DNA of 64,000 nt, taken from NCBI GenBank assembly GCA_016235665.1, contig JACRJI010000014.1, positions 147,544-211,543 on the forward strand. Direction: 5' to 3'. Under the pieces are notes generated by a model. It did no database searches, had not been told where the DNA came from, and worked only from the letters and a program-made list of their open reading frames with translations. Both the position numbers and the translations under genes were made by a program. Below are positions 12,288-48,857 of this stretch, piece after piece; within the stretch, counting starts at the first letter, position 1, and each line of letters starts with the position of its first letter. This stretch comes from a candidate division TA06 bacterium. GTDB taxonomy: Bacteria > Edwardsbacteria > AC1 > EtOH8.

Positions 12288-12655
12288 ATCTAACTTGCTC
12301 AGGAAAAGTAGATAAAATAAACAGGTTTGGTAATAACGTAGATATTGCTCAATTATGTTCTTTTCTTTTTGCCCCGCCAAACAGAAAAGAACCAAAAGAA
12401 AAAGCTCGTCGCTTAAAACTTGTGGTGAGCGGGGTCGAACCACTCTCCGGGCCACGCTTACGCCCTGCCTACGTATAGCTTCGGCGGGCCCGCGCTGCGC
12501 TTCTCGTTGCCGGCGGGCTTGTCTGAACTCGGGTTTTGGCTAAGCCCTCAAACATGCAGACAAGCTTTTTCCGCCATCAACTGCGATGCTCACTGATCGT
12601 GATTCGATAAACTCATCACAAGTTTTTAACGCGACAACCGGGGTTGGCACCGGGT
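12288..12655 (+). repeat. dispersed structured repeat, copy A (MITE-like / ncRNA family)
   Basis: shares >85% identity blocks with five other copies (see findings); TIRs CTCAGGAAA...TTTCCTGAG. Confidence 0.8.
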
Positions 12656-12678
12656 ATACAACCAGTTTTCTTAGCTAA

Positions 12679-13287
12679 TTGGACAAACATATACAATTAA
12701 ATCATAAACAAAAATTACTGATACCAAACGTTATGTTAGCTCCACTTTTTACGGTAAAGAAGATCAAAAACAAAGGCCAGGGGCTTTTCGCCAGGGAATT
12801 CATCCCCCGGGGAACCATCGTGTTCTTTGAATGCCATAACTGCAAAGTTACGCCCAAGGCCAGTTTTCAAAAACTATTCCCCGCCCAAAAGGAAAAACTG
12901 CTGTTCCATGCATACACCGTCAAGAACGGCTCGGTGGTGATGCCCTGCGGCGACTCCAAATACATGAACCATTGCTGCGATTCCAACATCCTGGACACCG
13001 GGAAGGGATACGACATCGTGGTCCGGGACATCAAGAAAGGCGAAGAGGCCACCTACGACTACCGGGTCTTTTATGACCAGGACTGGGGATTCCAGTGCGC
13101 CTGCGGCTCCAAGAACTGCTGCGGCACTTTCCGCTGCCGGCACCCGCTGCCCCGGGGAGTGCGGGCCTTATGGGACAAGAAGATCAAGCCGGCCATAAAG
13201 CTGATCAACAAAGTACCTCAGCCGTTAAAGAACGAACTGATCTTGCATAATTCAAAACATAAAAGGCTGTTTAGCAACATGTCATGA
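12679..13287 (+). CDS. SET-domain protein (putative lysine methyltransferase)
   Basis: NHCCDSN (NHSCxPN-like), EEATYDY, post-SET CACGSKNCCG cysteines. Confidence 0.7.
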   Translation: MDKHIQLNHKQKLLIPNVMLAPLFTVKKIKNKGQGLFAREFIPRGTIVFFECHNCKVTPKASFQKLFPAQKEKLLFHAYTVKNGSVVMPCGDSKYMNHCCDSNILDTGKGYDIVVRDIKKGEEATYDYRVFYDQDWGFQCACGSKNCCGTFRCRHPLPRGVRALWDKKIKPAIKLINKVPQPLKNELILHNSKHKRLFSNMS

Positions 13288-13505
13288 TCATAAACCTTAA
13301 GATCGTCCCCAATGCCAAGGCCGAGAAGCTGGTAAAAGAAGCCGGCCGGTACAAGGTCTATGTCACTGCCCCGGCGGTGGACGGCAAGGCCAATCAAAAA
13401 CTGGTGGAGTTCCTGGCCGGGCATTTCAAGGTCAGAAAAACAGCCGTCACCATCCTCCGGGGCCAGACCTCGCGTCTGAAATTGGTGGAGATAAAAACCG
13501 AATGA
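13284..13505 (+). CDS. DUF167 (YggU-like) family protein
   Basis: KIVPNAKAEKLV...YKVYVTAPAVDGKANQKLVEFLAGHFKV...ILRGQTSRLKLVEI matches YggU/DUF167 pattern. Confidence 0.65.
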   Translation: MIINLKIVPNAKAEKLVKEAGRYKVYVTAPAVDGKANQKLVEFLAGHFKVRKTAVTILRGQTSRLKLVEIKTE

Positions 13506-14032
13506 AGACCATCAAATATTCCCGTCTTATCCTGATCTGCCTGACCCTGCTGGACGCAGGCTTCATCCTGCTCAGCGGGTTCATCATGCAAAGCCCGGTC
13601 CTGCTGATCAAACTTCTGGGTATCGTTGTCCTGTTTGCCGCCACCATGGGCGCGGCCCTGATCAGCCGGGAGTGGGTACGGCCGTCACAGGTCCGGGTCG
13701 AGGATGACCAGGTCATAGTTCAATGGAACAACTGGGAACTGCGGGGCCGGCTGGCGGAAAGGTCGTTCTCAGAACAAAAGCCCAAAATGCTCAGGCTCAA
13801 AGTCCTGGAATACAAGATCACCCTGTACCCGGTGGGGCCGATGTTCATCCTGGCCGGGCTTCTGGCGGAGCCCATCAGACAGCGGCTGCCCCGGCTGCTG
13901 GATAAGACGTTTTTTTATAACCGCGATAAACTGGTCTCTCAATTATCTCCAATCCCGGGAACCGCCGGGGTAATGCTGGAAATTCCGGTGATTTTACTGG
14001 GAAAAAGAAAGGTGAAAAAATGGCTTGGCTGA
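13502..14032 (+). CDS. hypothetical membrane protein
   Basis: two N-terminal TM helices; coupled to neighbours by 4-nt overlaps. Confidence 0.4.
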   Translation: MKTIKYSRLILICLTLLDAGFILLSGFIMQSPVLLIKLLGIVVLFAATMGAALISREWVRPSQVRVEDDQVIVQWNNWELRGRLAERSFSEQKPKMLRLKVLEYKITLYPVGPMFILAGLLAEPIRQRLPRLLDKTFFYNRDKLVSQLSPIPGTAGVMLEIPVILLGKRKVKKWLG

Positions 14033-15375
14033 AGAACATCTTCCAACGGGCCAAACCCCTGGCCTCAGGGCTGTATCATTACCGGGGACAAGAGGGCGAC
14101 CGGTTCTTCCGGCTGCACCTGCGGATAGAGCCCGACGCCCGGGGGGTGCTGGTGATCAACGCCTCCAAGATCCTGCACCTGAACCAGACCGCGGCCGAGC
14201 TGGCCAAGCACATCATAGAAGGCGACGACGCCAAAACAGCGGCGGAGCAGATGGTAAAGCGCTACCGGGGCGTGAAATCTTCGGTTCTGGAGAACGATTT
14301 CAACCAGCTCAAGCAGAAGATCTTCGCCCTGGCCTCCACCGACGACGTCTGCCCGGTGACCTATCTGGACATCAACCGGATCGAGCCCTTCGAGACCCCG
14401 GTCAGCGCGCCCTACCGGATGGACCTGGCCCTGACCTACAAATGCAACGACGCCTGCGGCCACTGCTACCTGCCCAAGGACCGGATGCCCCAGGAACTCA
14501 CCGCCCAGCAGTGGAAGCAGATCCTGTCGAAATTGTGGGATACCGGGATCCCCCACGTCTGCTTTACCGGGGGCGAGGCCACCCTAAGGCCGGACCTGGT
14601 GGACCTGATCGCCTATGCCGAGGAGACCGGCCTGGTGACCGGCCTTTTGACCAACGGCCGGAAACTGAAGGACAAAAAGCTGGTCAAGCAGATGACCGAA
14701 GCCGGCCTGGACCATTTCCAGATCACTTTGGAATCGCACCTGGCCTCGGTCCACGACAAGATGGTGGGCAGCAAGGGGGCCTTTGAGGACACGGTCAAGG
14801 GAATAAAGAACGCCGTGGCCTCGCCGGTCTACACCATCACCAACACCACCCTGACCAGGCTCAACGCCAAGGGCATGGAAAAGACCATGGAGTTCCTTAA
14901 AAAGCTGGGGATCACCACCATGGCCTGCAACGGGCTGATCTATTCCGGGCAGGGAGCCTCTTGCGGTCTGGGCTTCACCGAAGCGGAGCTGGTGCCGCTG
15001 ATGGAGAGGATCCGGGAAAAGGCCCGGCAGCTGGACCTCAAACTGATCTGGTACACGCCCACCCAGTACTGCCAGCTGGACCCGGTGAACCTGGAGCTGG
15101 GTGTCAAGACCTGCACCGCCGCCCGCTACAACATGTGCGTGGAGCCGGACGGCTCGGTCATCCCCTGCCAGAGCTATTTCGCCCCGCTGGGGAACATCCT
15201 GACCGACAGGTGGGAGAAGATCTGGAACGCCAAGCCGGCGGTGGATCTCCGCAACAAAACCTATTTGATGGACAAATGCAAGGGGTGCCAGAAACTGCCG
15301 CTGTGCGGGGGCGGGTGTCCGATATACAATACCCAGAATGAAGTGATATGCGTGGACAGCAAGTCTAACGCATAA
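14020..15375 (+). CDS. radical SAM protein with C-terminal SPASM-like Cys cluster
   Basis: CNDACGHC (CxxxCxxC) motif; C-terminal CQSYFAPLGNI...CKGCQKLPLCGGGCP cysteines. Confidence 0.75.
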   Translation: MAWLKNIFQRAKPLASGLYHYRGQEGDRFFRLHLRIEPDARGVLVINASKILHLNQTAAELAKHIIEGDDAKTAAEQMVKRYRGVKSSVLENDFNQLKQKIFALASTDDVCPVTYLDINRIEPFETPVSAPYRMDLALTYKCNDACGHCYLPKDRMPQELTAQQWKQILSKLWDTGIPHVCFTGGEATLRPDLVDLIAYAEETGLVTGLLTNGRKLKDKKLVKQMTEAGLDHFQITLESHLASVHDKMVGSKGAFEDTVKGIKNAVASPVYTITNTTLTRLNAKGMEKTMEFLKKLGITTMACNGLIYSGQGASCGLGFTEAELVPLMERIREKARQLDLKLIWYTPTQYCQLDPVNLELGVKTCTAARYNMCVEPDGSVIPCQSYFAPLGNILTDRWEKIWNAKPAVDLRNKTYLMDKCKGCQKLPLCGGGCPIYNTQNEVICVDSKSNA

Positions 15376-15433
15376 CTGGGGCGAAGAAAAAAAGGAGCGG
15401 TTGTTGACCGCTCCTTTTTACGTTTGTCTGTTA

Positions 15434-16300: not shown

Positions 16301-16337
16301 CGCCTTTCATTGTCATTGTTCGCTATGTTATTCCAGC

Positions 16338-21631: not shown

Positions 21632-21674
21632 TAAGAACCTCTGAAGGGGTGAAATATTTGATCTTTAATGACTA

Positions 21675-21951
21675 TATAAATAGTGGATATGGTAAAACCC
21701 AGATTTAACCAGGTTATGTTCTTTTCTTTTTGTGCCGCTAACAAGAAAAGAACCAAAAGAAAAAGCTCGTCGCAAAGAACCATCCGGGCGCTGCGCTTCT
21801 CGTTGCCGGCGGGCTTGTCTGAACTCGGGATTTTGCCAATCCCTCAAACAGGCCAGACAAGCTTTTAACCGCCGTCAACTCCGATGCTCACTGATGGTTC
21901 TTAACGCGACATACCTTGGTTGGTTGACGGTTGATCATCCTGTTTCCTGAG
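21675..21951 (+). repeat. dispersed structured repeat, copy B
   Basis: shares core with copies A,C-F; stem GGGATT/AATCCC shows compensatory change relative to GGGCT/AGCCC. Confidence 0.8.
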
Positions 21952-22070
21952 CAAACCGGATAAGCAGTTAATCTTTTATTATACTAAAAAAATGCAGGCA
22001 TAGCAAGAAAAAATCCCCTCCGGAAGATGTCCGGAAGGGGCATAATGCTTTCGGCGTGGATCCCAGAATA

Positions 22071-30442: not shown

Positions 30443-30487
30443 CCCGTATTTTTGCAAATTTTCGTAATAAATATAATCCAATAACCT

Positions 30488-30766
30488 CGGGAAAACTGGG
30501 GAACAAAAGGCACCAGCCCCGGTATGTCGCGTTAAAACGATCAGTGAGCATCGCAGTTGACGGCGGAAAAAGCTTGTCTGCATGTTTGAGGGCTTGGCCA
30601 AAGCCCGAGTTCAGACAAGCCCGCCAGCAACGAGAAGCGCAGCGCGGGCCCGCTGAAGCTTTAGCGTAAGCGTGGCCCGGAGAGTTTTAAGCGACGAGCT
30701 TTTTTCTTTTTGGTTCTTTTTCTTAGTTGGCGGAACAAAAAAGAAAAAGAACAATAATAAAATTAA
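30488..30766 (-). repeat. dispersed structured repeat, copy C (inverted orientation)
   Basis: reverse complement matches core of copies A,B,D-F. Confidence 0.75.
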
Positions 30767-34173: not shown

Positions 34174-34929
34174 ACTATTAGCCCTACAACGCTCTGCCTA
34201 TGCCAAGGCTTCCTCCTACGCAACTGCTGCGGCGGACATGTTGGCAGACATGCATAGCTTCGCCGGACAAGCAATTGACAATTAGCAGGAACCCCGGAGC
34301 CTGAGATATCAGGTCCGGGGTTTTGTGTTTTTAAATCCAAATGATTATCCCATTCGCTCAGGAATAATTTATGGGATCAATTATTGGACACGGGCTTCGA
34401 TAAGGTTTCGATAAACTCAACCCGGCGCCTCAGCCGAACGATTTACACGGATTTATTGAATATATCTGCGAAAATCGGTAATAATCAGCGTGTATCTGCG
34501 TTCCGGTTGGTTTTTGGTTAGGCTTCCTGAAGGAATGGGATAGTCATTTAACCCGAATAACACATAGGTCCCCCAAAACATAATTCCTAAAATAACTTGA
34601 CATTTATCCTGGTTTGGTAGTATCATACTTTTCAATAAATGTAAAAACAGATTTGTTCACTCGTCATATACACTCTGTATATAAAAATGTTTAACCAAAC
34701 ATTAAACATACAATGTTCTGGCATGCATTTTGCCAGACCAGACCAAAGATCTGAGTCGTTACCGACAGAAAACAATGACCTAAAGTATAAGGTCCCGTCT
34801 TGCTTCGCATCAGGAAGCAGGGCGGGGCTTTTTGTTTAACATTTCATTTTTTACACCTTAGAAAACGAGAAAATATTGATTACTGACATCCTGCGGGGCG
34901 CACACTCCGTTCTGCGCCCCGCAGAGAAG

Positions 34930-35217: not shown

Positions 35218-38200
35218 ATGAACAATCATATCAATTTAAATAATAGACATATATATATTCTGATCTTAGTCGGTTTATTAAATTTGCTCTTGCCTTTAAC
35301 AGCTTTTGGCTGGGGGACATATAGTGTTACAGGTTGCGGGAATGTAATTCTATCACCTGGTGATGTTTACCAAGGTGGATCAACTGCTTATGCTAATTCA
35401 TATGAAAGCGATCTGCAAGATTGGTTGGGAGCTACATATGACGGCAGATATTCTTTTGTTGAGCAAACGCCCTATGTCCAGGATTATTTAGGTAATAAAT
35501 TACATTTCAGGAAAGGTGCTTCCGATTCAACAATGGTAGCCTCCAACAATGGCACAGCATACTGTGCTTTTACTGTTTCCCTTGATCCAGACTATTCTGG
35601 CGAAGACGTATCTGTATATCTGTATTTAATGCGGGCTACAACACAAATAGTTTCTGTTGCGAGGTTCTTTATAAAAGGGAAAAAACATCCAAAATGTGAC
35701 ATGGTAGGAAATCCAGTATCTGCCTATTATGGTAACAAACAAATAAATGAGATTGATATCAGCAAAAATGATTTAATGTTAAATCGGCAATATGGACGCA
35801 GAATAATATCTATAACCGATACCGGTAAACCTTGGAACAGACCTTTTGCTGCAACCAATTGGAACCATAATTGGAATAAATACATTTATAAGGCAACAAG
35901 TAATGACACAATAATTTTAATGAATGGTACAGAGGGTGCGAGCAAATTCATTCGGGTTGCCGGGAGCACGAATTATAAATCCGAACGGCAGGGTATGGGC
36001 TACTTAGACAGCATACCCGGTGGCGGGTGGAACTTGAATATATCTGATGGTAGTCGTTACCGGTTTAATATATATGGCAGTTTGGACAGCCTTTTATTAA
36101 AGAATGGTAATTATTATAGGCTTTGGCATACTGCAGATAGCACATATCTGGACAGTATAACAAACATGACGAATGATAGACTGAAATTCCGGTATAATAT
36201 TGCCAATAGATTGGCAAGAGTGTTTTATGATTCGACCCAGAATTTCATTGAGTATAGATATGACAGTACCATTACTGGTTGGTCAATTAGTCAAGTATTG
36301 ATGCATTATAGTCCAAGTGATTCTGTGAAAGTAATCAGCAGGTATTACTATGATGGGTATGTTCCAAATTATGTGGGAGCCGGTAACATATCTGTATATC
36401 AAAAAGGGTATAATTATTCAGATACTATTTATACTAACAATCGTAACAAAGGTGATCGTACAATCTGTTGGTATGATTCAACCTATAGGGGACGCGTTTC
36501 ATACCAGGAGGTAGTACATGGTGACAACGACACCGGCCATGTGGATGACGAAGTGACATACAGGGCATACTTCAAATATTATTTTGGTACTGGCACGACC
36601 GGTTACGACAGCACTAAGGTATACTATTGGGAAGACCAACCATTTACCGGAGCCCATGATCCGGCGGATACCTCTTTCAAACCCAAGGATAGCCTTTCAG
36701 CCTGGACCGATAACGAAAAGTATTTTATCCGAACGCTGATTTTCAACAAGGACGGCACCAAATACAAGGATATGACCTATAGTCCCATTACCGGGATTAC
36801 TGTTACTACAAAAGATACGCTTTATGACAAAGATTACAATCCCGGCTTGGTTATAGGCTCCAACAATGACAGCACTAAATATTATTATTCACACTACCAT
36901 AACCCCGGCGATACCACCACTCGCTACTGGCCCAGCCCCACCAAGATAAAATACCCCAACGGCGACTCCGTTCTCACCTACTTCTCGGCCAAGGGCGACA
37001 GCAACTACCGCCTGCCGGATTCCACCATTGACGAGGCGGGCAAAAGGACCTGCCACTATTACGATGCTTCCAACAATTACGTGGACACGGCCACGGTTTA
37101 CAAAAACAGGGTACTGGCCGACGGCGAGGGCAGCAGCCACGATGTCAGTCAAAGATACCACTATAATAGTAAGGGCAACCTGACCGAAACCCTGGATCTC
37201 CTGGGTCACAAGACCATAATGCATTACACCGATTCCGACACCGGGCAATACCTGATTGAACAAAGAATAGACATGGGGACTGCCGGGGAAGGGAACGAGG
37301 ACATCGTCACCCAATACGGCTACAATCTTACCCAGGGGACTATGGACACCATGACGTTCTACCGGGATTATCCCAACGACCCCAGCCGGACGTTCTATAC
37401 TTATGACGTCAACAAGCGGTTGGTTAAGACTGTATATCCTGATACTTCAGTTGATTCCATGACCTATGACCTGCGGGGCAATCTGCTGGAAAAGATAACC
37501 CAAAAGTCGTACACTCTGCTTTACAAGGCCATATACGAGTATGACCCGCACGATCATCTAACCAAGCTTAAGGAATACAAGGATCCTCAGAACTCGCCGA
37601 ACGATTACGATTCCACCGTGTATACTTACAACCTGCACGACAGGTTGATCTCCCAAACCAACGCCTTGGGGCAGACCACATATTATAACTACTGCATGGA
37701 CCGGTTAGTGAAAACCACCTACCCCGATGATACCTACGACAGCCTGGGTTATTGGGCCGGGGGCGATCTTAAGTTCAAATTAGACCGCAAAGGGCAGGTG
37801 ACGTATTACCAGTACGATGGCTATAACGGCGGTTGCGGGTGCATGTCTTCCAGCCGTTCCAGATTGGCTAAGAAGTATTATTATGATAGCTTGGACCAAT
37901 ACCAAAACGGTTTTGCCTATCCTTCGGATTCCGTGATCTACGATTACGACCAGGTTGGCAACCGCACAAAAATGGTTGACAAAAACGGGACTACGATGTA
38001 TTCTTATGACGATATGAACCGGCTGTGGAGCGACTCCTGCGGCTACCTGAACACCAAGAACCGGTACCAGTATGATATGGCTGGCAACCGGACGAAACTG
38101 AATGTTTACCAGGGCAATGATACCACCGTCTGCTACCTGGATCAAAACTACGACAATTACGATGCGGCCAATAGGGTGGGCCTGACAATTGCCTCGGGCG

Positions 38201-39603
38201 ACACTTTTGATCTTAGTTACTGGGACACCGGCACGCCCAAGGAGGTGCAATACCCCAACGGGGCCAAAGAGGTTTACGGGCTAAATGTTCGTGGACAGCT
38301 TGACTCCATAGCCACCACGTTAGGCGATACCTTGACCTGGTTCAAACACAGCTACGGGTACAACGGCCTGGGGGACAGGGAATGGCAATACATTTACCAA
38401 ACCCGGCCGGAGGTGTCCACATTATCCGATACCTTTAAATATGGCTACGACGGATTGCGGCGGCTGACTACTGCCATATACCCGCCCAGCACCAACAGCG
38501 GTGATACTGTAACCTACGTTTACGACGCTGTGGGAAATAGGCTGGAGAAACAGAGCATGGTCAATGGAACCACTACTTATACCATTGACAACTTGACCAA
38601 CCGTATGGCCCAGGCAAATAACATTTATTTTACTTATGACAGCAGCGGCAACTGGACCCGTAAGGCGCACGATACCGACGAAGGATTAGTGACGGACATC
38701 ATTTTCACGTATGATCATGAGAACCGGCTGGTAGACGCCCGTGGCCCCGGCTATAATCCATACTATATGACCACGTATTACAATGGCGATGGTGTTAGAT
38801 TAGCCAAGAGCACCAATGCTGACGCCGAAAAGCGGTATGCGTATGACGGCATGAACACGGTAGTGGAGCAGGATGCCAGCGGTTACTTAAGGTACAAGTA
38901 TGTTTATGTCAACGGAATGCTGTTGTCCCGCATTGACGGTAGTGATAATAAGTATTATTACCACAGAGACGGGTTGGGTTCAATAATTGGCGTAAGTAAT
39001 AGCACACCTGAAATTACCACTGCGCAATTGTTTGATGAGTTTGGCAATTGGCTGTACTTTGACAGTGATTGGGACTATTATGGCTATACGGGCCAGGAGT
39101 ACGACTGGACGCTGATGGATGCGGTGAACCTAAGGGCCAGGGAGTATTACCCGGAATATGGCAGGTTCATGCAGGAGGATCCGATAGGGGACCAAGGGGG
39201 ATTAAATTGGTATGGTTATACCGGGAACAATCCGGTAAATTACATTGATCCGAAGGGATTAGAAGGTTCATATGGTGGATGGATGTTAATTTGGCCACCT
39301 ACTTTAAGGTATGGCATTGGCGGTGGTATTATGTATTACTATTATCAGCAAATGATTAAAATGAATTGGAAAGGAGCTGATGCATATTTTCATTGTCTCG
39401 GATCTTGTGAAGCAGCTAAATGGGCAGGACCCTATACAAGCTTATACTGGGGTGTTTTCAGAGAACTAACCGATGAAATACGTGGAAAAGGTTGGTCTGG
39501 TGAAGATATTAAAAGTAATATACAAGGTATCAATTGTCCATTAAGCCAGACATGTAAGGAAAAATGTAAACCGCTGGTACCTAAAGGCATGCCACTAGAT
39601 TAA
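35218..39603 (+). CDS. RHS/YD-repeat polymorphic toxin, 1461 aa, with C-terminal toxin tip after DPxGL
   Basis: signal peptide; dozens of YD repeats (YDxxGN/R); RHS core end EDPIGDQGGLNWYGYTGNNPVNYIDPKGL followed by ~115-aa AT-rich Cys-containing tip. Confidence 0.9.
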   Translation: MNNHINLNNRHIYILILVGLLNLLLPLTAFGWGTYSVTGCGNVILSPGDVYQGGSTAYANSYESDLQDWLGATYDGRYSFVEQTPYVQDYLGNKLHFRKGASDSTMVASNNGTAYCAFTVSLDPDYSGEDVSVYLYLMRATTQIVSVARFFIKGKKHPKCDMVGNPVSAYYGNKQINEIDISKNDLMLNRQYGRRIISITDTGKPWNRPFAATNWNHNWNKYIYKATSNDTIILMNGTEGASKFIRVAGSTNYKSERQGMGYLDSIPGGGWNLNISDGSRYRFNIYGSLDSLLLKNGNYYRLWHTADSTYLDSITNMTNDRLKFRYNIANRLARVFYDSTQNFIEYRYDSTITGWSISQVLMHYSPSDSVKVISRYYYDGYVPNYVGAGNISVYQKGYNYSDTIYTNNRNKGDRTICWYDSTYRGRVSYQEVVHGDNDTGHVDDEVTYRAYFKYYFGTGTTGYDSTKVYYWEDQPFTGAHDPADTSFKPKDSLSAWTDNEKYFIRTLIFNKDGTKYKDMTYSPITGITVTTKDTLYDKDYNPGLVIGSNNDSTKYYYSHYHNPGDTTTRYWPSPTKIKYPNGDSVLTYFSAKGDSNYRLPDSTIDEAGKRTCHYYDASNNYVDTATVYKNRVLADGEGSSHDVSQRYHYNSKGNLTETLDLLGHKTIMHYTDSDTGQYLIEQRIDMGTAGEGNEDIVTQYGYNLTQGTMDTMTFYRDYPNDPSRTFYTYDVNKRLVKTVYPDTSVDSMTYDLRGNLLEKITQKSYTLLYKAIYEYDPHDHLTKLKEYKDPQNSPNDYDSTVYTYNLHDRLISQTNALGQTTYYNYCMDRLVKTTYPDDTYDSLGYWAGGDLKFKLDRKGQVTYYQYDGYNGGCGCMSSSRSRLAKKYYYDSLDQYQNGFAYPSDSVIYDYDQVGNRTKMVDKNGTTMYSYDDMNRLWSDSCGYLNTKNRYQYDMAGNRTKLNVYQGNDTTVCYLDQNYDNYDAANRVGLTIASGDTFDLSYWDTGTPKEVQYPNGAKEVYGLNVRGQLDSIATTLGDTLTWFKHSYGYNGLGDREWQYIYQTRPEVSTLSDTFKYGYDGLRRLTTAIYPPSTNSGDTVTYVYDAVGNRLEKQSMVNGTTTYTIDNLTNRMAQANNIYFTYDSSGNWTRKAHDTDEGLVTDIIFTYDHENRLVDARGPGYNPYYMTTYYNGDGVRLAKSTNADAEKRYAYDGMNTVVEQDASGYLRYKYVYVNGMLLSRIDGSDNKYYYHRDGLGSIIGVSNSTPEITTAQLFDEFGNWLYFDSDWDYYGYTGQEYDWTLMDAVNLRAREYYPEYGRFMQEDPIGDQGGLNWYGYTGNNPVNYIDPKGLEGSYGGWMLIWPPTLRYGIGGGIMYYYYQQMIKMNWKGADAYFHCLGSCEAAKWAGPYTSLYWGVFRELTDEIRGKGWSGEDIKSNIQGINCPLSQTCKEKCKPLVPKGMPLD

Positions 39604-39615
39604 GAAAGGTTTAAA

Positions 39616-40047
39616 ATGAAGATATTAAAAATTACATTTTTAACGGTTGTTTTAACGATCACCGCTTTCATCATCATTAGGCAACCTTGGCAAAAAAATG
39701 TAATGGTTTTATCTCAACCATTACTTCAAAACAATCAAACAATTGAATTATGGGAAAAACCATATCATAATATCTTTAGCATGGAGTATACAACATGGTT
39801 TGTATTTAATAATAACGGAAATAGGACTTGGCATTTGATTGATGACAAATATATTTCCTTTGGCACAGTTTCGTTATTCGTATCAAACAACAACGATACA
39901 ATTAGAGTTGAAACAACTGGAGCAGCTACACCTCTTCATTTAATTGCACAGTATAGTTTATCTGATAAAAATTTTGTTGCAAGAAGTGAAGAAACTGTTA
40001 GTAATAAAGCAGGATGGAAATTGCTTAGATCATTAAAAATAAGATAA
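39616..40047 (+). CDS. putative cognate immunity protein (TM/secreted, 143 aa)
   Basis: immediately downstream of toxin tip; AT-rich like the tip; followed by hairpin CTGCCCCGCC-TAAT-GGCGGGGCAG. Confidence 0.5.
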   Translation: MKILKITFLTVVLTITAFIIIRQPWQKNVMVLSQPLLQNNQTIELWEKPYHNIFSMEYTTWFVFNNNGNRTWHLIDDKYISFGTVSLFVSNNNDTIRVETTGAATPLHLIAQYSLSDKNFVARSEETVSNKAGWKLLRSLKIR

Positions 40048-40100
40048 ATAGATGTCTCAACTGCCCCGCCTAATGGCGGGGCAGTGATGGTACTGCTGAA

Positions 40101-41366
40101 AAACCCTACAACGACCTGGGCGACCGCACCAGTCAGTATGTGTACATGACCAGACCCGGCACCACCGCGCTCTCCGGCACGATAAATTACACCTACGATG
40201 GCTTGCGGCGGCTTACTACTGCCATATATCCGCCCAGCACCAACAGCGGGGATACTATAACCTACACCTACGATGCCATGAGCAACCGGACGGCTAAAAC
40301 AAGCGTAAACAACGGAACCACGCCGTATGCCGTTGACGACACTACCAACCGGATGTCCCAGGCTGGGAATTACTATTTTGACTATGACAGCTGCGGAAAC
40401 TGGACCCGCAAGTGGCATACAACAGACGAAGGTTCGGTAGTTGATATTTATTTTAGTTACGACTACGAGAACCGTCTGACGGACGCCCGGGGGCCTGGAG
40501 GCGATCCGTATTACATGACGAACACGTATAACGGAGACGGAGTTAGACTATCTAAGGCCACCAACGCCGACCTCGAGAAGCGTTATGTGTATGACGGCAT
40601 GAACACCGTGGTGGAGCAGGATGCCAGTGGTTACTTAAGGTACAAATATGTTTACGTGAACGGAATGCTGTTATCGCGTATAGATGCCAGCGATAATAAG
40701 AGCTACTACCACCATGATGGTTTGGGGTCAATTATTGGCGTAAGCAACAGCGCACCGGAAATACTCACAGCTCAATTGTTTGATGAGTTCGGCAACTGGC
40801 TGTATTTTGATAGTGATTGGGATTATTACGGCTACACGGGCCAGGAGTATGATTGGACGCTGATGGATGCGGTGAACCTTAGGGCAAGAGAATACTATCC
40901 TGAGTACGGCAGGTTTATGCAGGAGGACCCGATAGGCAATAGGGGCGGGAGCTTGAATTGGTATTTGTATGTGGCAAATAATCCGATTAATGCTGTTGAT
41001 TTACATGGCTTATATATTATTGACAACAGTTATGATAAGTATTTGAGACAGAAGTTATTGACGACGCAGGGTATAGCATTAATGAGGGCAACAATAACTG
41101 CTAATCCTTGTTGTGTCGGTGGACAAAATAATGTAGATAAAATATTGGCTGCATTACATAATAGTATTTTTATATACAATGATGTTGAATCAACATATCG
41201 GGCTTCATGTCAATATAATAATATCACTTTCACAAGAGAAACATTTGACTCTAGGTCTGGTATTGTTGCTTCATCGGTATTGCACGAACTTACCCATATG
41301 GCGTTTCGTGTTTCATCGGAATATTTACCCAAGAAATATGAAGCAGATTGTTTCGGGTATAAATAA
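40101..41366 (+). CDS. orphan RHS C-terminal cassette (no canonical start) ending in a different toxin tip with HELTH motif
   Basis: in-frame homology to parent gene begins right after the 40058-40082 hairpin (YNDLGDR..YTYDGLRRLTTAIYPPSTNSGDT); DPIGNRGGSLNWYLYVANNPINAVDLHGL then novel tip with HELTHM. Confidence 0.7.
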   Translation, partial: KPYNDLGDRTSQYVYMTRPGTTALSGTINYTYDGLRRLTTAIYPPSTNSGDTITYTYDAMSNRTAKTSVNNGTTPYAVDDTTNRMSQAGNYYFDYDSCGNWTRKWHTTDEGSVVDIYFSYDYENRLTDARGPGGDPYYMTNTYNGDGVRLSKATNADLEKRYVYDGMNTVVEQDASGYLRYKYVYVNGMLLSRIDASDNKSYYHHDGLGSIIGVSNSAPEILTAQLFDEFGNWLYFDSDWDYYGYTGQEYDWTLMDAVNLRAREYYPEYGRFMQEDPIGNRGGSLNWYLYVANNPINAVDLHGLYIIDNSYDKYLRQKLLTTQGIALMRATITANPCCVGGQNNVDKILAALHNSIFIYNDVESTYRASCQYNNITFTRETFDSRSGIVASSVLHELTHMAFRVSSEYLPKKYEADCFGYK

Positions 41367-41386
41367 TTAATTGAAAGGGAAAGAAA

Positions 41387-41890
41387 ATGCATAAAAATAT
41401 TCTAATAGCGATAGTGGCAATATTGTTATCTTGCACAAAATATGGTATATCAAGTAATGATAAAAATATTATTTACGGTTTAGTTATAAGTGATCAAAAA
41501 AGTATTCATGCACAAGAGATGCCTACGTTTAATATAAAAAAAATATATGTTAATATTCTCGGCTGTGACCCAAACAATGAATTGGTTGAATATTTAAAGC
41601 AAAATAATGCGATTGATATAGTGCCTGCATCGAAGAGCATTAATGTTTACCACGACCCAGTGAAGTTTGATTATTATAAAAACCCAATTTCAGTGAGGAG
41701 TAAAAGCAATAACGAAAATGGCATTATATTTGAGATAAAAAGTATTAAAAAGGAACCTAAAACAGGGATAATAACTGTTAACTTATTCTATTATGCGGGG
41801 CCTTTATTCGCGGGTAATTATGAGTATTTAATAGATAAAAACGATAAAGAATGGTATATTGTAAAAAGAAGCATTGGCGAAATATCATAA
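41387..41890 (+). CDS. putative immunity lipoprotein for orphan cassette 1
   Basis: signal/lipobox-like N-terminus; AT-rich; followed by perfect palindrome CCAGACCCGCCCTTAAGGGGCGGGTCTGG. Confidence 0.45.
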   Translation: MHKNILIAIVAILLSCTKYGISSNDKNIIYGLVISDQKSIHAQEMPTFNIKKIYVNILGCDPNNELVEYLKQNNAIDIVPASKSINVYHDPVKFDYYKNPISVRSKSNNENGIIFEIKSIKKEPKTGIITVNLFYYAGPLFAGNYEYLIDKNDKEWYIVKRSIGEIS

Positions 41891-41938
41891 TGATGTGAAC
41901 CAGACCCGCCCTTAAGGGGCGGGTCTGGTTCTTACAGC

Positions 41939-42739
41939 TGGGACGGGGTAAGATTATCCAAGGCCACAAATGCTGACGCCGAAAAGCGGTATGCGTATGA
42001 CGGCATGAACACGGTGGTGGAGCAGGATGCCAGCGGTTACTTGAGATACAAATATGTTTATGTGAACGGAATGCTCTTGTCCCGCATTGATGGTAGTGAT
42101 AATAAGTATTATTACCACAGAGACGGGTTGGGTTCAATAATTGGCGTAAGTAATGGCACACCTGAAATTACCACTGCTCAACTGTTTGATGAGTTTGGCA
42201 ACTGGCTGTATTTTGACAGTGATTGGGACTATTACGGCTACACCGGCCAGGAGTACGACTGGCCGTTGATGGATGCGGTGAACCTTAGGGCAAGAGAGTA
42301 TTACCCGGAGTATGGAAGGTTCATGCAGGAGGACCCGATAGGAAATGCAGGTGGTTCACTTAACTGGTATTTGTATGTGGCAAATAATCCGATTAACTGG
42401 ACGGACCCCACTGGGAAGATCGTGTACAAATGTGTCAGTGGTGCACATGTCTACATTAAAATATCTGGCAATAAATATAATAATGCATGGGGTTTCTATC
42501 CAGTTGGTGCACCTTTGTCGGGCATAGCTTCTGGTTTGTTAAACGAATGGGTGCCAAGCTATGTTAAGGTATTTGAAACAGGAGGCAACTGCAAAGCTGT
42601 GACCTCAGATGATTGTAACGATCAAGCAGTTTACAACGCAATTCACACTTTAGCAAGAGCTCAATTACCATATCATTTGATTTATTTTAACTGCATTCAT
42701 TGGACAGATACCGCCTTAAGTATAGGTGGCGTTAAATAA
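41939..42739 (+). CDS. orphan RHS C-terminal cassette 2 (no canonical start) with third distinct toxin tip
   Basis: DGVRLSKATNADAEKRYAYDGMNTVVEQ... in-frame homology to parent residues; EDPIGNAGGSLNWYLYVANNPINWTDPTGK then novel tip. Confidence 0.7.
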   Translation, partial: WDGVRLSKATNADAEKRYAYDGMNTVVEQDASGYLRYKYVYVNGMLLSRIDGSDNKYYYHRDGLGSIIGVSNGTPEITTAQLFDEFGNWLYFDSDWDYYGYTGQEYDWPLMDAVNLRAREYYPEYGRFMQEDPIGNAGGSLNWYLYVANNPINWTDPTGKIVYKCVSGAHVYIKISGNKYNNAWGFYPVGAPLSGIASGLLNEWVPSYVKVFETGGNCKAVTSDDCNDQAVYNAIHTLARAQLPYHLIYFNCIHWTDTALSIGGVK

Positions 42740-42747
42740 AAAGGAGA

Positions 42748-43173
42748 ATGAAAATGTTGATCAACCTTAAAGCACTATCTCTTGTCGAAAAAATAGTTGG
42801 TGCTATTGCTATTATTGTTAGCGGCTATTATATCCTTCATGGGTCCTCTGCTTGGATTCTTTTACATTTGACCTCTAACATACAAGGATTTTTCCCCAAA
42901 ATGACATTCGTGGTAGAGACTATCGTCAATTTTTATTTAATACCACTTTTAATTTTAGTTACTGGTCTTTTTTATGTGAATGGGAAAATTAATATATTAG
43001 CTATGTGGATTTCGATTATACTTTGTCTGTCAATCGTATTTATGATAGTTGTACAGCATGGCAATATCAAACCATATTTGCTTATGCTTGTAATTAATGG
43101 TTTGTTCTTAATTCTTTATATTGTTCATAAACAAGTAGAGTCAAAGAAAAAAGAATCTGCCTGTTGTGTATAA
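42748..43173 (+). CDS. putative immunity membrane protein for orphan cassette 2
   Basis: four hydrophobic helices; AT-rich; followed by hairpin AGCCCCGCC-GATT-GGCGGGGCT. Confidence 0.45.
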   Translation: MKMLINLKALSLVEKIVGAIAIIVSGYYILHGSSAWILLHLTSNIQGFFPKMTFVVETIVNFYLIPLLILVTGLFYVNGKINILAMWISIILCLSIVFMIVVQHGNIKPYLLMLVINGLFLILYIVHKQVESKKKESACCV

Positions 43174-43542: not shown

Positions 43543-43690
43543 TGAAATATTGAAATGCTAAACTAATAAGCAGTTAAAAAACAATGCTGGAAATAGTAAT
43601 TCTGGATCAGAGTACACTGAACCAACAACAGAAGTAAAAATGATCGACAAAAAAGAGATCCGGCGGTAGTACAAAGAGACCATCCAGCCC

Positions 43691-43996: not shown

Positions 43997-44013
43997 ACTT
44001 GGCCAAATGCCTG

Positions 44014-44396
44014 TCTAACTTGTTTAGGAAAAGTAGAAAGAATTTAGCAGGTTTGGTGATAACGCAGATATTAACTCAAAAATGTTCTTTTCTTTTTGTA
44101 TCGCCAACAAGAAAAGAACCAAAAGAAAAAGCTCGTCGCTTAAAACTCTCCGGGCCACGCTTACGCCCTGCCTACGTATAGCTTCGGCGGGCAAGCAGGG
44201 CTTCAGCGGGCCCGCGCTGCGCTTCTCGTTGCTGACGGGCTTGTCTGAACTCGGGCTTTGGCCCAGCCCTCAAACATGCAGACAAGCTTTTTCCGCCATC
44301 AACTGCGATGCTCACTGATCGTGATTCGATAAACTCATCACAAGTTTTTAACGCGACAACCGTGGTTGGGGCCGGTTGTCCTCTATGTTTCCTGAG
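44014..44396 (+). repeat. dispersed structured repeat, copy D
   Basis: TIRs CTTGTTTAGGAAA.../...TTTCCTGAG; carries extra insertion GGGCAAGCAGGGCTTCAGC. Confidence 0.8.
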
Positions 44397-44441
44397 ATGA
44401 TGGGGTAAGCATTCTTTACCAAAACGCAAACGAAGTACAAT

Positions 44442-45401
44442 ATGAAAAAAAGCATTCTTTTATCTTTGGCCCTGCTGTCACTGTTGGCTGTACCGGTATC
44501 AGCCGCCGCCCCGCCGGAGGGGCCGGATTCGGTCTACGTGGGGATGTATGTCAACCGGGTGTACGACGTCTCCCTGCGGGACAACAGATTCACGGCCGAC
44601 TTCTACCTGTGGTTCCGCTGGAAGAACCAGGACCTGGATCCCGTCAAGAGCTTCGAGATCGTGGGCGGCGAGAAGACCTTCCAGTCCGAGCCCTACCGGT
44701 CCAAGAACGGCGATGTCAACTACGCCTTCAGCCGGGTGACGGCGGTGATGACCCAGCACTGGGATGTCTCCGCCTTTCCCTTTGACGATCACGTCCTGAC
44801 CGTACAGATAGAGGACGGGGAGAGCGAGACCGGATCCCTGGTCTATGTCCTGGACGCCGGAAACCTGGGCAAGAGCCCGGATATTAAAATACCCGGCTGG
44901 GCTTTGGACAAGTTCTATTTCGGGGTGGTGCCCTATACCTATGCCACCAATTACGGAGATCCCACCCTGCCCCCGGAAAATCAATCAATATTTTCCAGAT
45001 TTTACTGCTCGGTCCGGGTGGTCAGGGCGGGAGTGGGATATTTCATAAAACTATTCATAGCGGTATTCCTTTCGGCCCTGATTGCCTTCATGAGCTTTTT
45101 CATATCCCCGACAGACCTGCAATCCCGCACCGGACTGGGGGTGGGCGCCATCTTTGCCGCGGTCGGCAGCCAATATGTCATCGCCTCGTCGCTGCCCGAC
45201 AGCAACATCATGACCATGGCCGACCAGTTGCACATTGCGGCTTTCCTCTTCATATTCTTGTCCATACTAGTGGCTGTCATTTCCCTGAACCTGTATAACC
45301 GAGGAAAAAAAGAGTCCTCGGCCAAACTGGACCGTTTTTGCCAGAAGGCCTTTCCCATTGCCTACGGCACCATCACTCTGCTGATAATTCTTTTCCGCTA
45401 A
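44442..45401 (+). CDS. prokaryotic pentameric ligand-gated ion channel (Cys-loop receptor family) homolog
   Basis: signal peptide; extracellular beta-sandwich pattern VYVGMYVNRVYDVSLRDNRFTADFYLWFRWKNQDL; four C-terminal TM helices; 319 aa, the size of prokaryotic members such as GLIC. Confidence 0.6.
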   Translation: MKKSILLSLALLSLLAVPVSAAAPPEGPDSVYVGMYVNRVYDVSLRDNRFTADFYLWFRWKNQDLDPVKSFEIVGGEKTFQSEPYRSKNGDVNYAFSRVTAVMTQHWDVSAFPFDDHVLTVQIEDGESETGSLVYVLDAGNLGKSPDIKIPGWALDKFYFGVVPYTYATNYGDPTLPPENQSIFSRFYCSVRVVRAGVGYFIKLFIAVFLSALIAFMSFFISPTDLQSRTGLGVGAIFAAVGSQYVIASSLPDSNIMTMADQLHIAAFLFIFLSILVAVISLNLYNRGKKESSAKLDRFCQKAFPIAYGTITLLIILFR

Positions 45402-45471
45402 GATCTGCCGCCGCCAGCCGGCCATTGAAATATGCGGTTTCCTGGGGTATAATGGTTCAAAAGAAAATGCC

Positions 45472-45773
45472 TATCTAACTTGATCAGGAAAAGTAGAAAG
45501 AATACAGTGGATATGGTAAAAACGCAGGTTTTGCCCGGTTATGTTCTTTTCTTTTTGTACCGCCCAAAAGCAAAGAACCAAAAGAAAAAGCTCGTCGCTT
45601 AAAACTCTCCTGGCGTTGCGCTTCTCGTAGCCGGCGGGCTTGTCTGAACTCGGGCTTTGGCCCAGCCCTCAAACAGGCCAGACAAGCTTTTAACCGCCGT
45701 CAACTGCGATGCTCACTGATCGTTTTAACGCGACAACCGGGGTTGGCACCTATTGTCTACATGTTTCCTGAGC
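45472..45773 (+). repeat. dispersed structured repeat, copy E
   Basis: TIRs ATCAGGAAA.../...TTTCCTGAG. Confidence 0.8.
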
Positions 45774-45833
45774 TGATTAGATAATCATTCAAAAGAATAG
45801 TGCCTCACAAAAATCAACAGTCATGGAGAGACG

Positions 45834-47162
45834 ATGCTTAAAAAAACGATGATCATCCTTTTGCTGTTCAGCTGCTGGACAGCGCCCTCCTTTGCCCTGG
45901 ACACTTTGGCGGTCTACGAGGACAGCCTGGCCAACGGCCTGAAGATCCTGGTGCTGGAGAAGCACGACCTGCCCATCGCCAGTTTCCAGGTCTGGTACCG
46001 GGTGGGGTCGCGCAACGAGCGGCCGGGCATCACCGGGATCTCCCACCTGCTGGAGCACATGATGTTCAAGGCCTCGGGCGGCATAGGTTCGGGAGAGTTC
46101 GCCCGGACGGTGCAGAGATACGGGGGCCACAATAATGCCTTCACTTCCGAGGACTACACCGCCTATTACGAGAACATCGCGGTGGAGTTCCTGCCCCGGA
46201 TGATGGAGATGGAGGCCGGGCGGATGCACCGGCTTAAATTAGATTCGCTGGAGTTCGAGTCGGAGCGGCAAGTGATACTGGAGGAACGCCGGCTGCGGGA
46301 GAACTCCCCCTGGGGCCGGCTGGCCGAGGAATCAGACGCCGCGGCCTTCATGGCCCATCCCTACGGCTGGCCGATCCTGGGCTGGCCCTCGGACCTGCGG
46401 GCCATCACCATCAGGGATCTGCGGGGTTACTACTCTACCTATTATGCCCCCAATAACGCCACCTGTGTGATCGTCGGAGATGTCAAACCAAGGGAAACGG
46501 TGAAATTGGTGGAGAAATATTTTGGCGGCATTCCCCGGGCCCTGCAGAGCCCTCCCGTAGTGGCCACGGCAGAGCCGGTTCAGATGGGAGAGCGCCGGGT
46601 CAGCGTGGTGCGCCAGGCCCAGACACCATTGATGTTGATAGCCTTTCACGGCTGCCGGGCCGGGGAATACGACGAGGCGGTGCTGGACCTGCTTTCGGCC
46701 GTTCTCTCCGGCGGGGAAAGCGCCCGGCTCTACCAAAGCCTGATCTACCGGCAAAAATTGGCCCTATACGCCGAGGCTTACAACGAGGCCCGGACCGACC
46801 CCGGCTTGATAAGTTTTTACGCCGCGCCCATTGCTGGGCGGACCACGGCTGAACTGGAGCAGGCCCTTTATGCCGAACTGGAACTGGTAAAGACCCAGGG
46901 GGTCACCGCCGAAGAACTGGCCAAAGCCAAAAAACAGCTTAAGGCCCAGTACATATTCTCCCGGCAGAACAATTATGTGCTGGGGAACCAGCTGGGATCC
47001 TCGGCTTCGCGCCACGGCTGGCGGGACGTCAACAACTATCTCAAATTCCTGGATAAAGTAAGAACGGAAGACATCAAACAGGCCGCAGTGAAATACCTGG
47101 CCCCGGATAACCGTACTGTGACCACGCTGGTTCCCCAAGCCGCAAAGGGGCAGGAGAAATAA
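45834..47162 (+). CDS. M16-family zinc peptidase (pitrilysin/insulinase), catalytic subunit
   Basis: signal peptide; HxxEH motif GISHLLEHMMFK. Confidence 0.8.
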   Translation: MLKKTMIILLLFSCWTAPSFALDTLAVYEDSLANGLKILVLEKHDLPIASFQVWYRVGSRNERPGITGISHLLEHMMFKASGGIGSGEFARTVQRYGGHNNAFTSEDYTAYYENIAVEFLPRMMEMEAGRMHRLKLDSLEFESERQVILEERRLRENSPWGRLAEESDAAAFMAHPYGWPILGWPSDLRAITIRDLRGYYSTYYAPNNATCVIVGDVKPRETVKLVEKYFGGIPRALQSPPVVATAEPVQMGERRVSVVRQAQTPLMLIAFHGCRAGEYDEAVLDLLSAVLSGGESARLYQSLIYRQKLALYAEAYNEARTDPGLISFYAAPIAGRTTAELEQALYAELELVKTQGVTAEELAKAKKQLKAQYIFSRQNNYVLGNQLGSSASRHGWRDVNNYLKFLDKVRTEDIKQAAVKYLAPDNRTVTTLVPQAAKGQEK

Positions 47163-47163
47163 A

Positions 47164-48516
47164 ATGAAAAAAACATTCATACTTTCGGTACTGATGCTGG
47201 CAACTCTTGCCGCCGCCCAGTCCGGCTGGCAGCCGCCCCGGCCCCAAAGAGTGGCGCTGGGCAACGGACTGGTTCTGCTGGTGGTCCCCAAGACCGGCCT
47301 GCCGCTGGTCACCGTCAGCGCCATGGTCAGGGGCGGCAGCGCTTCCGACCCCAAAGCCTTGAACGGGCTGGCCAATTTTACCGCCGAGATGCTTTCCCGG
47401 GGGACCTCATCCCGCACCGCCCGGCAGATAGCCCAGAGCTTTGACCAGTTCGGGGCCCAGTTCTCGGTCAACTGCGATTACGATGCCGCGTATTTTTCAC
47501 TGACCTGCCTGAGCCAGGACCTGGAAAAACTGCTGCCGGTATTCATGGACCTGCTGCAAAACCCCAGGATGGATTCTTCCGAGGTGGAGAGGCTGAGGGA
47601 ACAGCTGGTCACTTCCATACAGGCCCAGCAGGACCAGCCAATGTCCCTTAGCCAGGAGGCCTTTGAAAAATGGCTGTACGGCCAGCATCAGTATGATCAC
47701 CAGGTGGAGGGGGAAGAAGCCACGGTCAGCGCCATAAGATCAGGGGACCTCATCTCCTGCCACAAAAAATATTTTGTTCCCAACAATGTGGTGATCGCCA
47801 TAGTGGGAGACGTGAAACCGGGCAATATCACGGGGCTTTTCAAGAAGCTAACCAAAACCTGGACCAAGGCCGAAACTCCGGGCATATTTTACGGCCAGAT
47901 CCCCAAAATTGAAAAACCGGGACTGCTAATGATCCACCGGCCCATCACCCAGTCATATGTTGTGCTGGGGTTCCTGGGACCAAAGCGGCTTGACCCCGAT
48001 TATCAGGCGGCCCGGCTTATGAACTACATCCTGGGCGGCGGCGGGTTTGTCTCCCGTCTTTTTACCAAGATCAGGGTGCAGCAGGGCCTGGCTTACGATG
48101 TTGACGCCTATTTCTCCCCCCGGTTGGACCATGGGCCCTACACCTTTACCGTTCAGACCAAATGCCAGTCTGCCGATACCGCCATCAAGACCATGATCGC
48201 GGAAATGGAAACGATCCGGAAGGAGCCGGTCACGGATCAGGAATTGTCAGAGGCCAAGGCTTACTTCCGGGGCAGTTATCCCTTCCGCTATGAGACCAAC
48301 GGACAGATCGCCAGTCAGATCCTAGGCGCCGAGCTTTACGGATTAAGCCCCGACCAAGTGACAAAGGACCTGGAGCTGATACAGAAGGTGAGCAAGGAGG
48401 ATATCCGGCTGGCCGCCCAGCGACTGCTGAAGCCGCAGAATTACATCGTTACCATGGCCACGGACACAGCCATCACCAAGATCAGCATTCCCGGCTTGAC
48501 GGTAGAGAAAAAATAG
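47164..48516 (+). CDS. M16-family peptidase, non-catalytic partner (lacks HxxEH)
   Basis: homologous layout to the upstream M16 gene, signal peptide, 2-nt intergenic gap. Confidence 0.7.
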   Translation: MKKTFILSVLMLATLAAAQSGWQPPRPQRVALGNGLVLLVVPKTGLPLVTVSAMVRGGSASDPKALNGLANFTAEMLSRGTSSRTARQIAQSFDQFGAQFSVNCDYDAAYFSLTCLSQDLEKLLPVFMDLLQNPRMDSSEVERLREQLVTSIQAQQDQPMSLSQEAFEKWLYGQHQYDHQVEGEEATVSAIRSGDLISCHKKYFVPNNVVIAIVGDVKPGNITGLFKKLTKTWTKAETPGIFYGQIPKIEKPGLLMIHRPITQSYVVLGFLGPKRLDPDYQAARLMNYILGGGGFVSRLFTKIRVQQGLAYDVDAYFSPRLDHGPYTFTVQTKCQSADTAIKTMIAEMETIRKEPVTDQELSEAKAYFRGSYPFRYETNGQIASQILGAELYGLSPDQVTKDLELIQKVSKEDIRLAAQRLLKPQNYIVTMATDTAITKISIPGLTVEKK

Positions 48517-48523
48517 TATGATT

Positions 48524-48857
48524 ATCTAACTTGCTCAGGAAAAGTAGAAAGAATGTAGTGGATACGTTATAAACGGAGATTTAACCAGGCTATGTTCTTT
48601 TCTTTTTGTGCCGCCAACTAGAAAAGAACCAAAAGAAAAAGCTCGTCGCAAAGAACCATCCGGGCCACGCTTACGCTAAAGCTTCAGCGGGCCCGCGCTG
48701 CGCTTCTCGTTGCCCGCGGGCTTGTCTGAACTCGGGCTTCTGCCAAGCCCTCAAACAGACCAGACAAGCTTTTAACCGCCGGCAACTGTGATGCTCACTG
48801 ATGGTTCTTAACGCGACAACCGGGGTTGGGCACCGGTTGATCATGCTGTTTCCTATG
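48524..48857 (+). repeat. dispersed structured repeat, copy F
   Basis: TIRs CTCAGGAAA.../...GTTTCCTATG; stem variant GGGCTT/AAGCCC. Confidence 0.8.

Follow-up and report, generated by a model that had tools for sequence, protein, structure and literature searches.

Six dispersed repeats in a candidate division TA06 bacterium form a family of non-autonomous DNA transposons, most likely mobilised by an IS1595-family transposase

What are the six repeats of several hundred nucleotides that lie dispersed through a 64,000-nucleotide stretch of a candidate division TA06 bacterium (GenBank assembly GCA_016235665.1, contig JACRJI010000014.1, positions 147,544 to 211,543; the whole of this stretch is referred to here as the window)? 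A prediction made from the sequence alone had offered two answers: a non-autonomous element resembling a MITE (a miniature inverted-repeat transposable element), or a structured noncoding RNA family or abundant small RNA (sRNA). The evidence below makes it very probable that the repeats are non-coding, non-autonomous DNA transposons of the MITE type, mobilised in trans, most likely by a transposase of the IS1595 family. Repeat finding, MAFFT alignment and nhmmer bore out the six copies at roughly the places first proposed. An nhmmer profile built from them recovered exactly six family members in the window, with E values of 1e-92 to 1e-121, and no seventh even at E<10. Patterns describing the two terminal inverted repeats (TIRs) matched the window 4 and 7 times, against 0.00 expected from dinucleotide shuffles. 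The copies are 292 to 411 bp long. No short open reading frame (ORF) is conserved between copies, and indels of 1, 2, 24, 25 and ~31-41 nt in the core disrupt every frame, in agreement with the earlier remark that reading frames inside the repeats are not conserved.

The element ends in 5'-AATG...CATT-3', and the copy coordinates were revised accordingly. Its TIR, originally described as 9 bp, is an imperfect repeat of 26 bp (5'-AATGMCTATCTAACTTGCTCAGGAAA ... TTTCCTGAGCTGATTGGATAATCATT-3'), in which the consensus left end matches the reverse complement of the right end at 21 of 26 positions (AATGAcTATCtAActtGCTCAGGAAA). Across 33 aligned full-length copies, the conserved left end reads 5'-AATGMCTATCTAACTTGCTCAGGAAAAG and the right end TTTCCTGAGCTGATTGGATAATCA(TT)-3'. 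When left and right flanks were compared position by position in 25 full copies, identity was 68-92% at the eight positions adjoining ...CATT, whereas the two positions after ...CA matched the left flank in 40-44% of cases, which is background (shifted registers gave 32-44%). We therefore place the end of the element at CATT, mirroring AATG, and set the target-site duplication (TSD) at 8 bp. The search for such duplications that had been recommended with the original prediction thus yielded AT-rich 8-bp duplications at five copies, perfect at A, E and F and imperfect at B and D. The six copies, and the parts of copy E, are as follows.

12281-12691 (411 bp), plus strand: MITE copy A; TSD TACAATTA at both 12273-12280 and 12692-12699; three optional hairpin modules, namely GTGGTGAGCGGGGTCGAACCAC, GGGCC..GGCCC with a nested extension, and GTGATTCGATAAACTCATCAC
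21667-21968 (302 bp), plus strand: MITE copy B; TSD TGATCTTT at 21659-21666 and TAATCTTT at 21969-21976 (7/8)
30469-~30760 (~292 bp), minus strand: MITE copy C; left TIR absent
44006-44413 (408 bp), plus strand: MITE copy D; TSD CTTGGCCA at 43998-44005 and CTTTACCA at 44414-44421 (6/8)
45466-45789 (324 bp), plus strand: MITE copy E, shortest among the full-length forms; TSD CAAAAGAA, perfect, at 45458-45465 and 45790-45797
45466-45491 and 45764-45789: left and right TIRs of copy E
45543-45578: T/A-tract hairpin of copy E
45594-45605 with 45722-45734: long-range stem of copy E
45628-45703: central long hairpin of copy E, then internally CAGACAAGCTTTT
48517-48874 (358 bp), plus strand: MITE copy F; perfect TSD AAAAATAG at 48509-48516 and 48875-48882

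Copy B retains its left end, where ~26 nt have been lost from inside the TIR, joining AATGACTAT to ATAAATAG. The truncated end of copy C adjoins the ribosome-binding site and start codon (30776) of the next gene, and the left TSD of copy F includes the stop codon of the ORF at 47164-48516. Two inserts, one held to be unique to copy A and the other a 20-nt insert credited to copy D, recur in other copies of the family (loci L055, L081 and L146; L002 and L135) and are therefore family modules. The idea that the optional modules move as units of their own was rejected, since they occur inside this family only, save for a loose TTCGATAAACTCA motif.

The family extends beyond the window into a small set of relatives. 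Counting was done with an exact core 17-mer, GCTTGTCTGAACTCGGG, in one genome per species across 185,579 species representatives. It identified 28 loci in the metagenome-assembled genome (MAG) 'uncultured bacterium MFD01299.bin.1.238' and 19 in the MAG 'bacterium UBP2_UBA5202', both of which are lower bounds; elsewhere it gave only isolated single matches, except L013, which duplicates a locus of MFD01299.bin.1.238. The projection of hundreds of copies genome-wide is thus unsupported for these relatives. The MAG loci hold 49 family copies beyond the six of the window. Eight further copies came from metagenome contigs chosen by TIR alone, and sediment metagenomes carry the family. A distant search of a plasmid database gave no match to copy E. 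One MFD01299.bin.1.238 locus (L030) shares synteny with window positions 24.7-33.0 kb, with 83-91% identity between the two; the window therefore derives from a species related to that MAG. Two observations concern how such repeats appear in assemblies. Comparison of L013 (6645-6975) with L017 (6105-6432) placed an MFD01299.bin.1.238 copy and its flanks (~97% identical) also at the start of a 688-kb contig from the same sample that was binned as an Alphaproteobacterium, a placement that probably stems from chimerism at the contig end or from a mistake in binning. In addition, a 1168-bp Logan contig (SRR12113407; L082) corresponds to window 44333-45500, with both of its ends inside copies D and E; no other public contig encodes the exact protein that lies between those copies. 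The MITE family accounts for the breaks at these intergenic sites in short-read assemblies of the uncultured lineage, and its profile can be used for masking or annotating the repeats.

Evidence for movement came from orthologous sites and from sibling elements. A site that is filled in UBP2_UBA5202 (L078) is empty at the orthologous position of the other MAG (L033), as detected by flank-joining BLAST. The same class of TIR also bounds unrelated interiors, in the window, in L016 and in numerous elements of 140-270 bp. Two further window features bear on this point.

34340-34548 (209 bp), plus strand: sibling MITE of the same TIR class with an unrelated interior, AATGATTATCCCATTCGCTCAGGAA ... 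TTCCTGAAGGAATGGGATAGTCATT; TSD degenerate, TAAATCCA / TAACCCGA (5/8)
53289-53296, no strand assigned: empty target site, a single TAACCACC

A metagenome contig (L118) that is syntenic with window 51.7-59.0 kb carries, at this empty site, a 162-bp sibling MITE; its TIRs are of the same class, and the 8-bp duplication TAACCAAA stands on either side of it. Scanning metagenomes with a generic TIR pattern returned 64 loci and several element families of 140-370 bp with these ends. A separate conserved interior motif, repeated AATCTGCG(T/G), marks further small elements in this lineage, for example as AATCTGCGTTAATCTGTGGAT within sibling MITEs of 160-260 bp; its carriers are L100, L091, L093, L118 and the flanks of L004, L020 and L065. 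Taking the TIRs and 8-bp TSDs together with the presence/absence polymorphism, the same-ended sibling family and a matching transposase family (see below), the first of the two original answers, a MITE-like non-autonomous element, is supported.

The same features bear on a different origin for the repeats, as host-maintained extragenic palindromes (REP-, BIME-, REPIN- or ERIC-like) or as derivatives of IS200/IS605-TnpB elements (palindrome-associated elements of the PATE type, or omega-RNA) that are not TIR transposons at all. The copies do form long imperfect palindromes with modular insertions, and they are intergenic and usually sit beside gene 3' ends. Against this origin stand the clear TIRs and TSDs and the filled and empty sites, and we know of no REP/REPIN or IS200/IS605 derivative with TIRs, TSDs or filled/empty-site polymorphism of this sort. 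No TnpB, IscB, TnpA(Y1) or RAYT-like gene was found among the scanned neighbours. We consider this origin extremely improbable; the suggested link to TnpB/IscB omega-RNAs is likewise unsupported, because elements of that type are without TIRs and TSDs.

Relative to neighbouring genes, 19 copies lie in sense and 22 in antisense orientation, 13 occupy convergent spacers and 1 a divergent spacer. This absence of orientation bias counts against a strand-specific role in cis and fits tolerated insertion beside gene 3' ends. The spacer that holds copy C (30469-30760) is occupied in L030 as well (5515-5785), by a copy in the opposite orientation and of a different subtype, and both copies are without the left TIR. 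Site-specific inversion was considered at this spacer and rejected on the difference in subtype; since both subtype and orientation differ, the two copies are judged to be independent insertions, which points to repeated use of one spacer.

The candidate for the mobilising enzyme emerged from the generic TIR scan, in which one type of locus (L109 type) has the end motif 240 bp upstream of a 342-aa ORF and inverted motif copies downstream of it. The ORF scores as a transposase of the IS1595 family (77.6 bits for NCBIfam NF033547, whose cutoff is 75; 63 bits for Pfam Zn_ribbon_IS1595, PF12760). Seven distinct homologs of this protein carry the end motif, being 36-68% identical to it over at least 94% of its length, apart from the L158 protein, which is 51% identical over 40%. 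In these homologs the motif takes the form (C/G)ATTATCCC-N6-CTCAGG, forward upstream of the gene and/or inverted downstream. Specifically, the genes of L109, L147 and L154 have ATGATTATCC-N6-CTCAGGAA on both sides, in forward orientation upstream and inverted downstream; in L151, L155 and L156 an inverted motif is present downstream of the gene, and in L150 the motif occurs upstream only. Locus L158 is a compact insertion sequence (IS) of ~1.03 kb with TIRs of ~28 bp, AATGGGGTATTCACTTGACTCAGG, in the same layout as the MITE end AATGACTATCTAACTTGCTCAGG. The ISSod11-subgroup end signature, which we take to be nnnGcnTATC, fits AATGCCTATC. The size of the target duplication agrees with published accounts, in which the IS1595 family usually makes 8-bp target duplications (PMC8101967) and an IS1595-derived MITE with an inverted repeat (IR) of 25 bp and a direct repeat (DR) of 8 bp has already been described (PMC3852290).

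Several observations weigh against an IS1595 enzyme as the partner. The IS1595-type genes found beside the motif belong to other metagenomic organisms. Neither tblastn with 120 IS1595-family proteins nor Pfam detected a transposase of this family in the window or among the host-lineage loci, which cover part of each MAG; it is for this reason that we infer the enzyme acting in the host. The five contigs with the best-matching transposase loci (L109 type) represent one genomic locus recovered from five metagenomes, and their genes are flanked by arrays of motifs rather than by a simple TIR pair. We accordingly rejected our initial count of these loci as five insertions; because they are a single locus, the ends and TSD of the L109 type could not be delimited. 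Three homologs obtained from NCBI proved to come from bulk metagenome assemblies rather than the MAGs. The arrays, seen in the L109 type and in its 68%-identical homolog P0002, comprise 3-7 TIR-like motifs (ATTATCCC-N6-TCAGG) spaced 53-80 nt apart, direct upstream and inverted downstream (L147 970-1345 and 2640-3001; L109 7248-7385 and 8790-9168), with periods of 68/140 and 114 in L147 according to Tandem Repeats Finder. Such arrays may represent several binding sites for the transposase, solo ends that have stacked up, or the mark of a domesticated transposase.

Because searches of the window and of the available host-lineage loci turned up no partner transposase, a MITE mobilised by an enzyme outside the IS1595 family, such as IS4 or another maker of 8-10 bp duplications, also has to be weighed. 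At first sight seven copies seemed to have 10-bp duplications. The IS4 family duplicates ~9-13 bp of target and has 5'-CA/CT ends, with '-AATR' ends in its IS4 subgroup (PMC2266710). However, the first two of the 10 positions are at background and belong to the CATT end, and every transposase beside the end motif is of the IS1595 family, with no IS4-type transposase associated with it. An IS4-family partner, which we had entertained on the seeming 10-bp duplications and the end of IS231, was dropped in view of the 8-bp TSD and the AATG...CATT ends, and mobilisation by any enzyme outside the IS1595 family now appears highly unlikely.

For a MITE with a passive interior, a further difficulty is the uniformity of the core, which exceeds that of the ends. 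Among paralogs, pairwise identity averages 0.92-0.93 in the core (0.92 without the 17-mer used for ascertainment), 0.70-0.78 in the TIRs and 0.54-0.64 in the subterminal arms, and the near-invariant core is present also in copies ascertained by TIR alone. This pattern is atypical of a MITE, and describing the interior plainly as a passenger is insufficient by itself. We compared four pairs of orthologous copies (A with L108, F with L124, L014 with L026, and L023 with L132). In these pairs the cores diverge about as fast as the arms and flanks: for F and L124, identity is 90.8% in the core, 97.3% in the left arm and 90.7% in the left flank, and for L023 and L132 it is 86.6% in the core and 82-85% in the flanks. 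Orthologs also differ by whole hairpin modules. F and L124 have the same arms and different core modules, and A and L108 share TSD and arms, with the three modules of A absent from L108; two of these three are common to A and its paralog D, including an exact 48-nt stretch. Host-level purifying selection on the core of each copy was therefore rejected. Since orthologs show no extra constraint on the core, its uniformity among paralogs is most readily attributed to constraint acting on transposing source copies, to gene conversion or to both. The spacer around copy A (12200-12750, with unique flanks) is 95-98% identical to the syntenic metagenome contig of L108, compared with just 60-89% for the genes beside it, and identity falls gradually into the downstream gene, which suggests a recent inter-lineage recombination tract or a mosaic assembly.

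The element folds into an extended, branched rod in which the TIRs form the outermost pairing. For copy E the minimum free energy is -104.6 kcal/mol (z = -4.0; z = -3.3 for the opposite strand). In a 52-copy alignment with a hand-refined structure, 85% of cells are paired, compared with 39-44% when the partners are slid, and cells with a double change number 83, compared with 41.8 +/- 6.1 in shuffles (0/500 as high). The number of pairs with a double change, 25 versus 19.1 +/- 2.8, is marginal, as 12 of 500 shuffles reach 25. Among individual cases, 26 copies have UA and 21 have CG at pair 414:482, the long-range stem occurs as three self-complementary haplotypes (TTAAAAC/GTTTTAA, AAGAACCATC/GATGGTTCTT and AAATACTATC/GATAGTATTT), and the T-tract and A-tract of the first hairpin vary in length in step. 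Counts of G-U and A-C (369 versus 186) are driven by a few fixed columns and do not pick a strand. The hairpin originally singled out for covariation stood only in part. Copy B, with GGGATT/AATCCC, has a true double change; the change in copy A is a G-U wobble, and the differences between D/E and F fall in the loop. Within this hairpin, pair 437:447 is CG in 45 copies, AU in 2, UA in 1, UG in 1 and something else in 3. On alignment of more copies, then, compensatory changes held up as real among the 52, at modest to moderate strength. Pairing is maintained, on moderate evidence, and hairpin-templated repair or gene conversion could produce it without selection.

A rival reading is that the conserved core functions as a structured RNA, be it an sRNA under its own promoter and terminator or an mRNA element that acts in cis, and spreads on the MITE; the element would in that case be a mobile noncoding RNA gene, not junk. 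In favour of such an RNA are the contrast between a core at 0.92 identity and outer arms at 0.54-0.78, repeated in the copies ascertained by TIR only, together with the compensatory changes, stem haplotypes, in-step homopolymers and excess of double-change cells. Variable hairpin modules at fixed sites resemble expansion segments, and by eye the left arm has a -35/-10-like pair (TTGCTC, 17 nt, TATAGT) and the long hairpin is followed by TTTT(T/A), although a promoter and terminator scan did not report them. The copies nevertheless matched nothing in Rfam, either in the gathering-score scan or in E-value scans of A, D and E, which returned noise only; the sole gathering-score match in the window is the transfer-messenger RNA (tmRNA) at 9746-10102. 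ARAGORN found no tRNA in the copies, including the insert of copy A that had been called T-arm-like. The lack of orientation bias, the undecided strand signal and the marginal count of double-change pairs likewise tell against an RNA function, as do orthologous cores that diverge like their surroundings and differ by whole modules, the confinement of the exact 17-mer to two species apart from isolated single matches, and the capacity of repair or conversion to keep pairing. A functional RNA spreading on the MITE is therefore judged unlikely. The second of the original answers, a structured noncoding RNA family or abundant sRNA, is not established, given the missing Rfam and tRNA matches, the unbiased orientation, the modest covariation and orthologous cores that evolve no more slowly. 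A broader possibility, which we hold to be rather unlikely, is that the interior is a structured nucleic-acid module maintained by element-level selection, as a fold of DNA or RNA needed for efficient mobilisation or as a mobile sRNA gene with a left-arm promoter and a hairpin-TTTT end. If true, it would explain why the core is more conserved than the TIRs, why the stem has three self-complementary haplotypes, and why modules occur only at fixed positions.

Under the favoured reading, that of a MITE mobilised in trans, a DDE transposase, most likely an IS1595-family enzyme combining a zinc ribbon with a DDE domain, would bind the ~26-bp TIRs (AATGMCTATC..CTCAGGAAA) and insert the element at AT-rich intergenic sites, where staggered cuts of 8 bp would generate the 8-bp duplications. 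Surviving copies lie, nearly always, beside a gene 3' end, in either orientation. The interior would be a passenger, a rod-like scaffold of branched hairpins that may gain or lose small hairpin modules, and the similarity of paralogs would most likely reflect constraint on transposition-competent source copies and/or gene conversion, not host function of each copy. As bacterial MITEs usually are, the copies are probably transcribed along with their neighbours, as stable stem-loops. Read in this way, the family and its siblings add a new MITE family from a candidate-phylum lineage to those of IS1595, with no new class of system, and they provide a tidy case for asking how the interior of a MITE stays more uniform than its ends, by concerted evolution or by element-level constraint.

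Other features of the window lie near the copies. Just downstream of copy F, at 49137-49389, two tandem 124-nt units (77% identity) are contained in a minus-strand ORF (49045-49557). An AT-rich RHS locus at 35218-43173 encodes a 1461-aa RHS-repeat protein followed by more RHS-repeat ORFs, with 300-nt repeats at 38779, 40527 and 41933 (81-82% identity); it has the look of an Rhs toxin gene accompanied by orphan C-terminal cassettes, and it is bracketed by the sibling MITE (34340-34548) and copy D (44006). A second AT-rich island occupies positions 1-10102 (40-46% GC versus ~57% elsewhere) and ends at the tmRNA gene (tag DTYNYALAA). Its genes encode a HerA/DUF87-like ATPase (661-2358), a ThiF-family protein (3930-4934), a tyrosine integrase (5740-6861) and a nucleotide-cyclase-domain protein (8479-9267), and it looks like an island integrated at ssrA, possibly with defence genes.

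Among known systems, the best-known ERIC elements have, to our knowledge, no defined TIR/TSD pair and no assigned transposase, and in this they differ from the present family, which has such a pair and a putative transposase family. Like ERIC/IRU and pneumococcal BOX elements, its copies are imperfect, modular palindromes that take extra segments at fixed internal positions and are similar across related species. With the Correia elements of Neisseria, RUP and the QMITEs of Coxiella (PMC10969869), the family shares intergenic AT-rich targets, TIRs of the 23-29 bp class, short DRs, the expectation of stable stem-loop transcripts, a frequent position in co-transcribed spacers and the grouping of several copies near neighbouring genes. 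In sequence it is unrelated to those elements; duplication length and partner family differ, and as regards promoter, integration host factor (IHF) site, RNase III site or sRNA, the present family is known from sequence alone. The closest parallel is the ISHwa6-related MITE of Haloquadratum walsbyi (165 bp, IR 25 bp, DR 8 bp; PMC3852290), which is likewise non-coding and multi-copy, with TIRs of ~25 bp and an 8-bp duplication; the ends of the present family resemble those around IS1595-family genes. In contrast to that MITE, the present family is twice as long (290-410 bp), belongs to an uncultured bacterial lineage with a presumed host partner IS, and has a branched core with optional modules that is more alike among copies than the TIRs.

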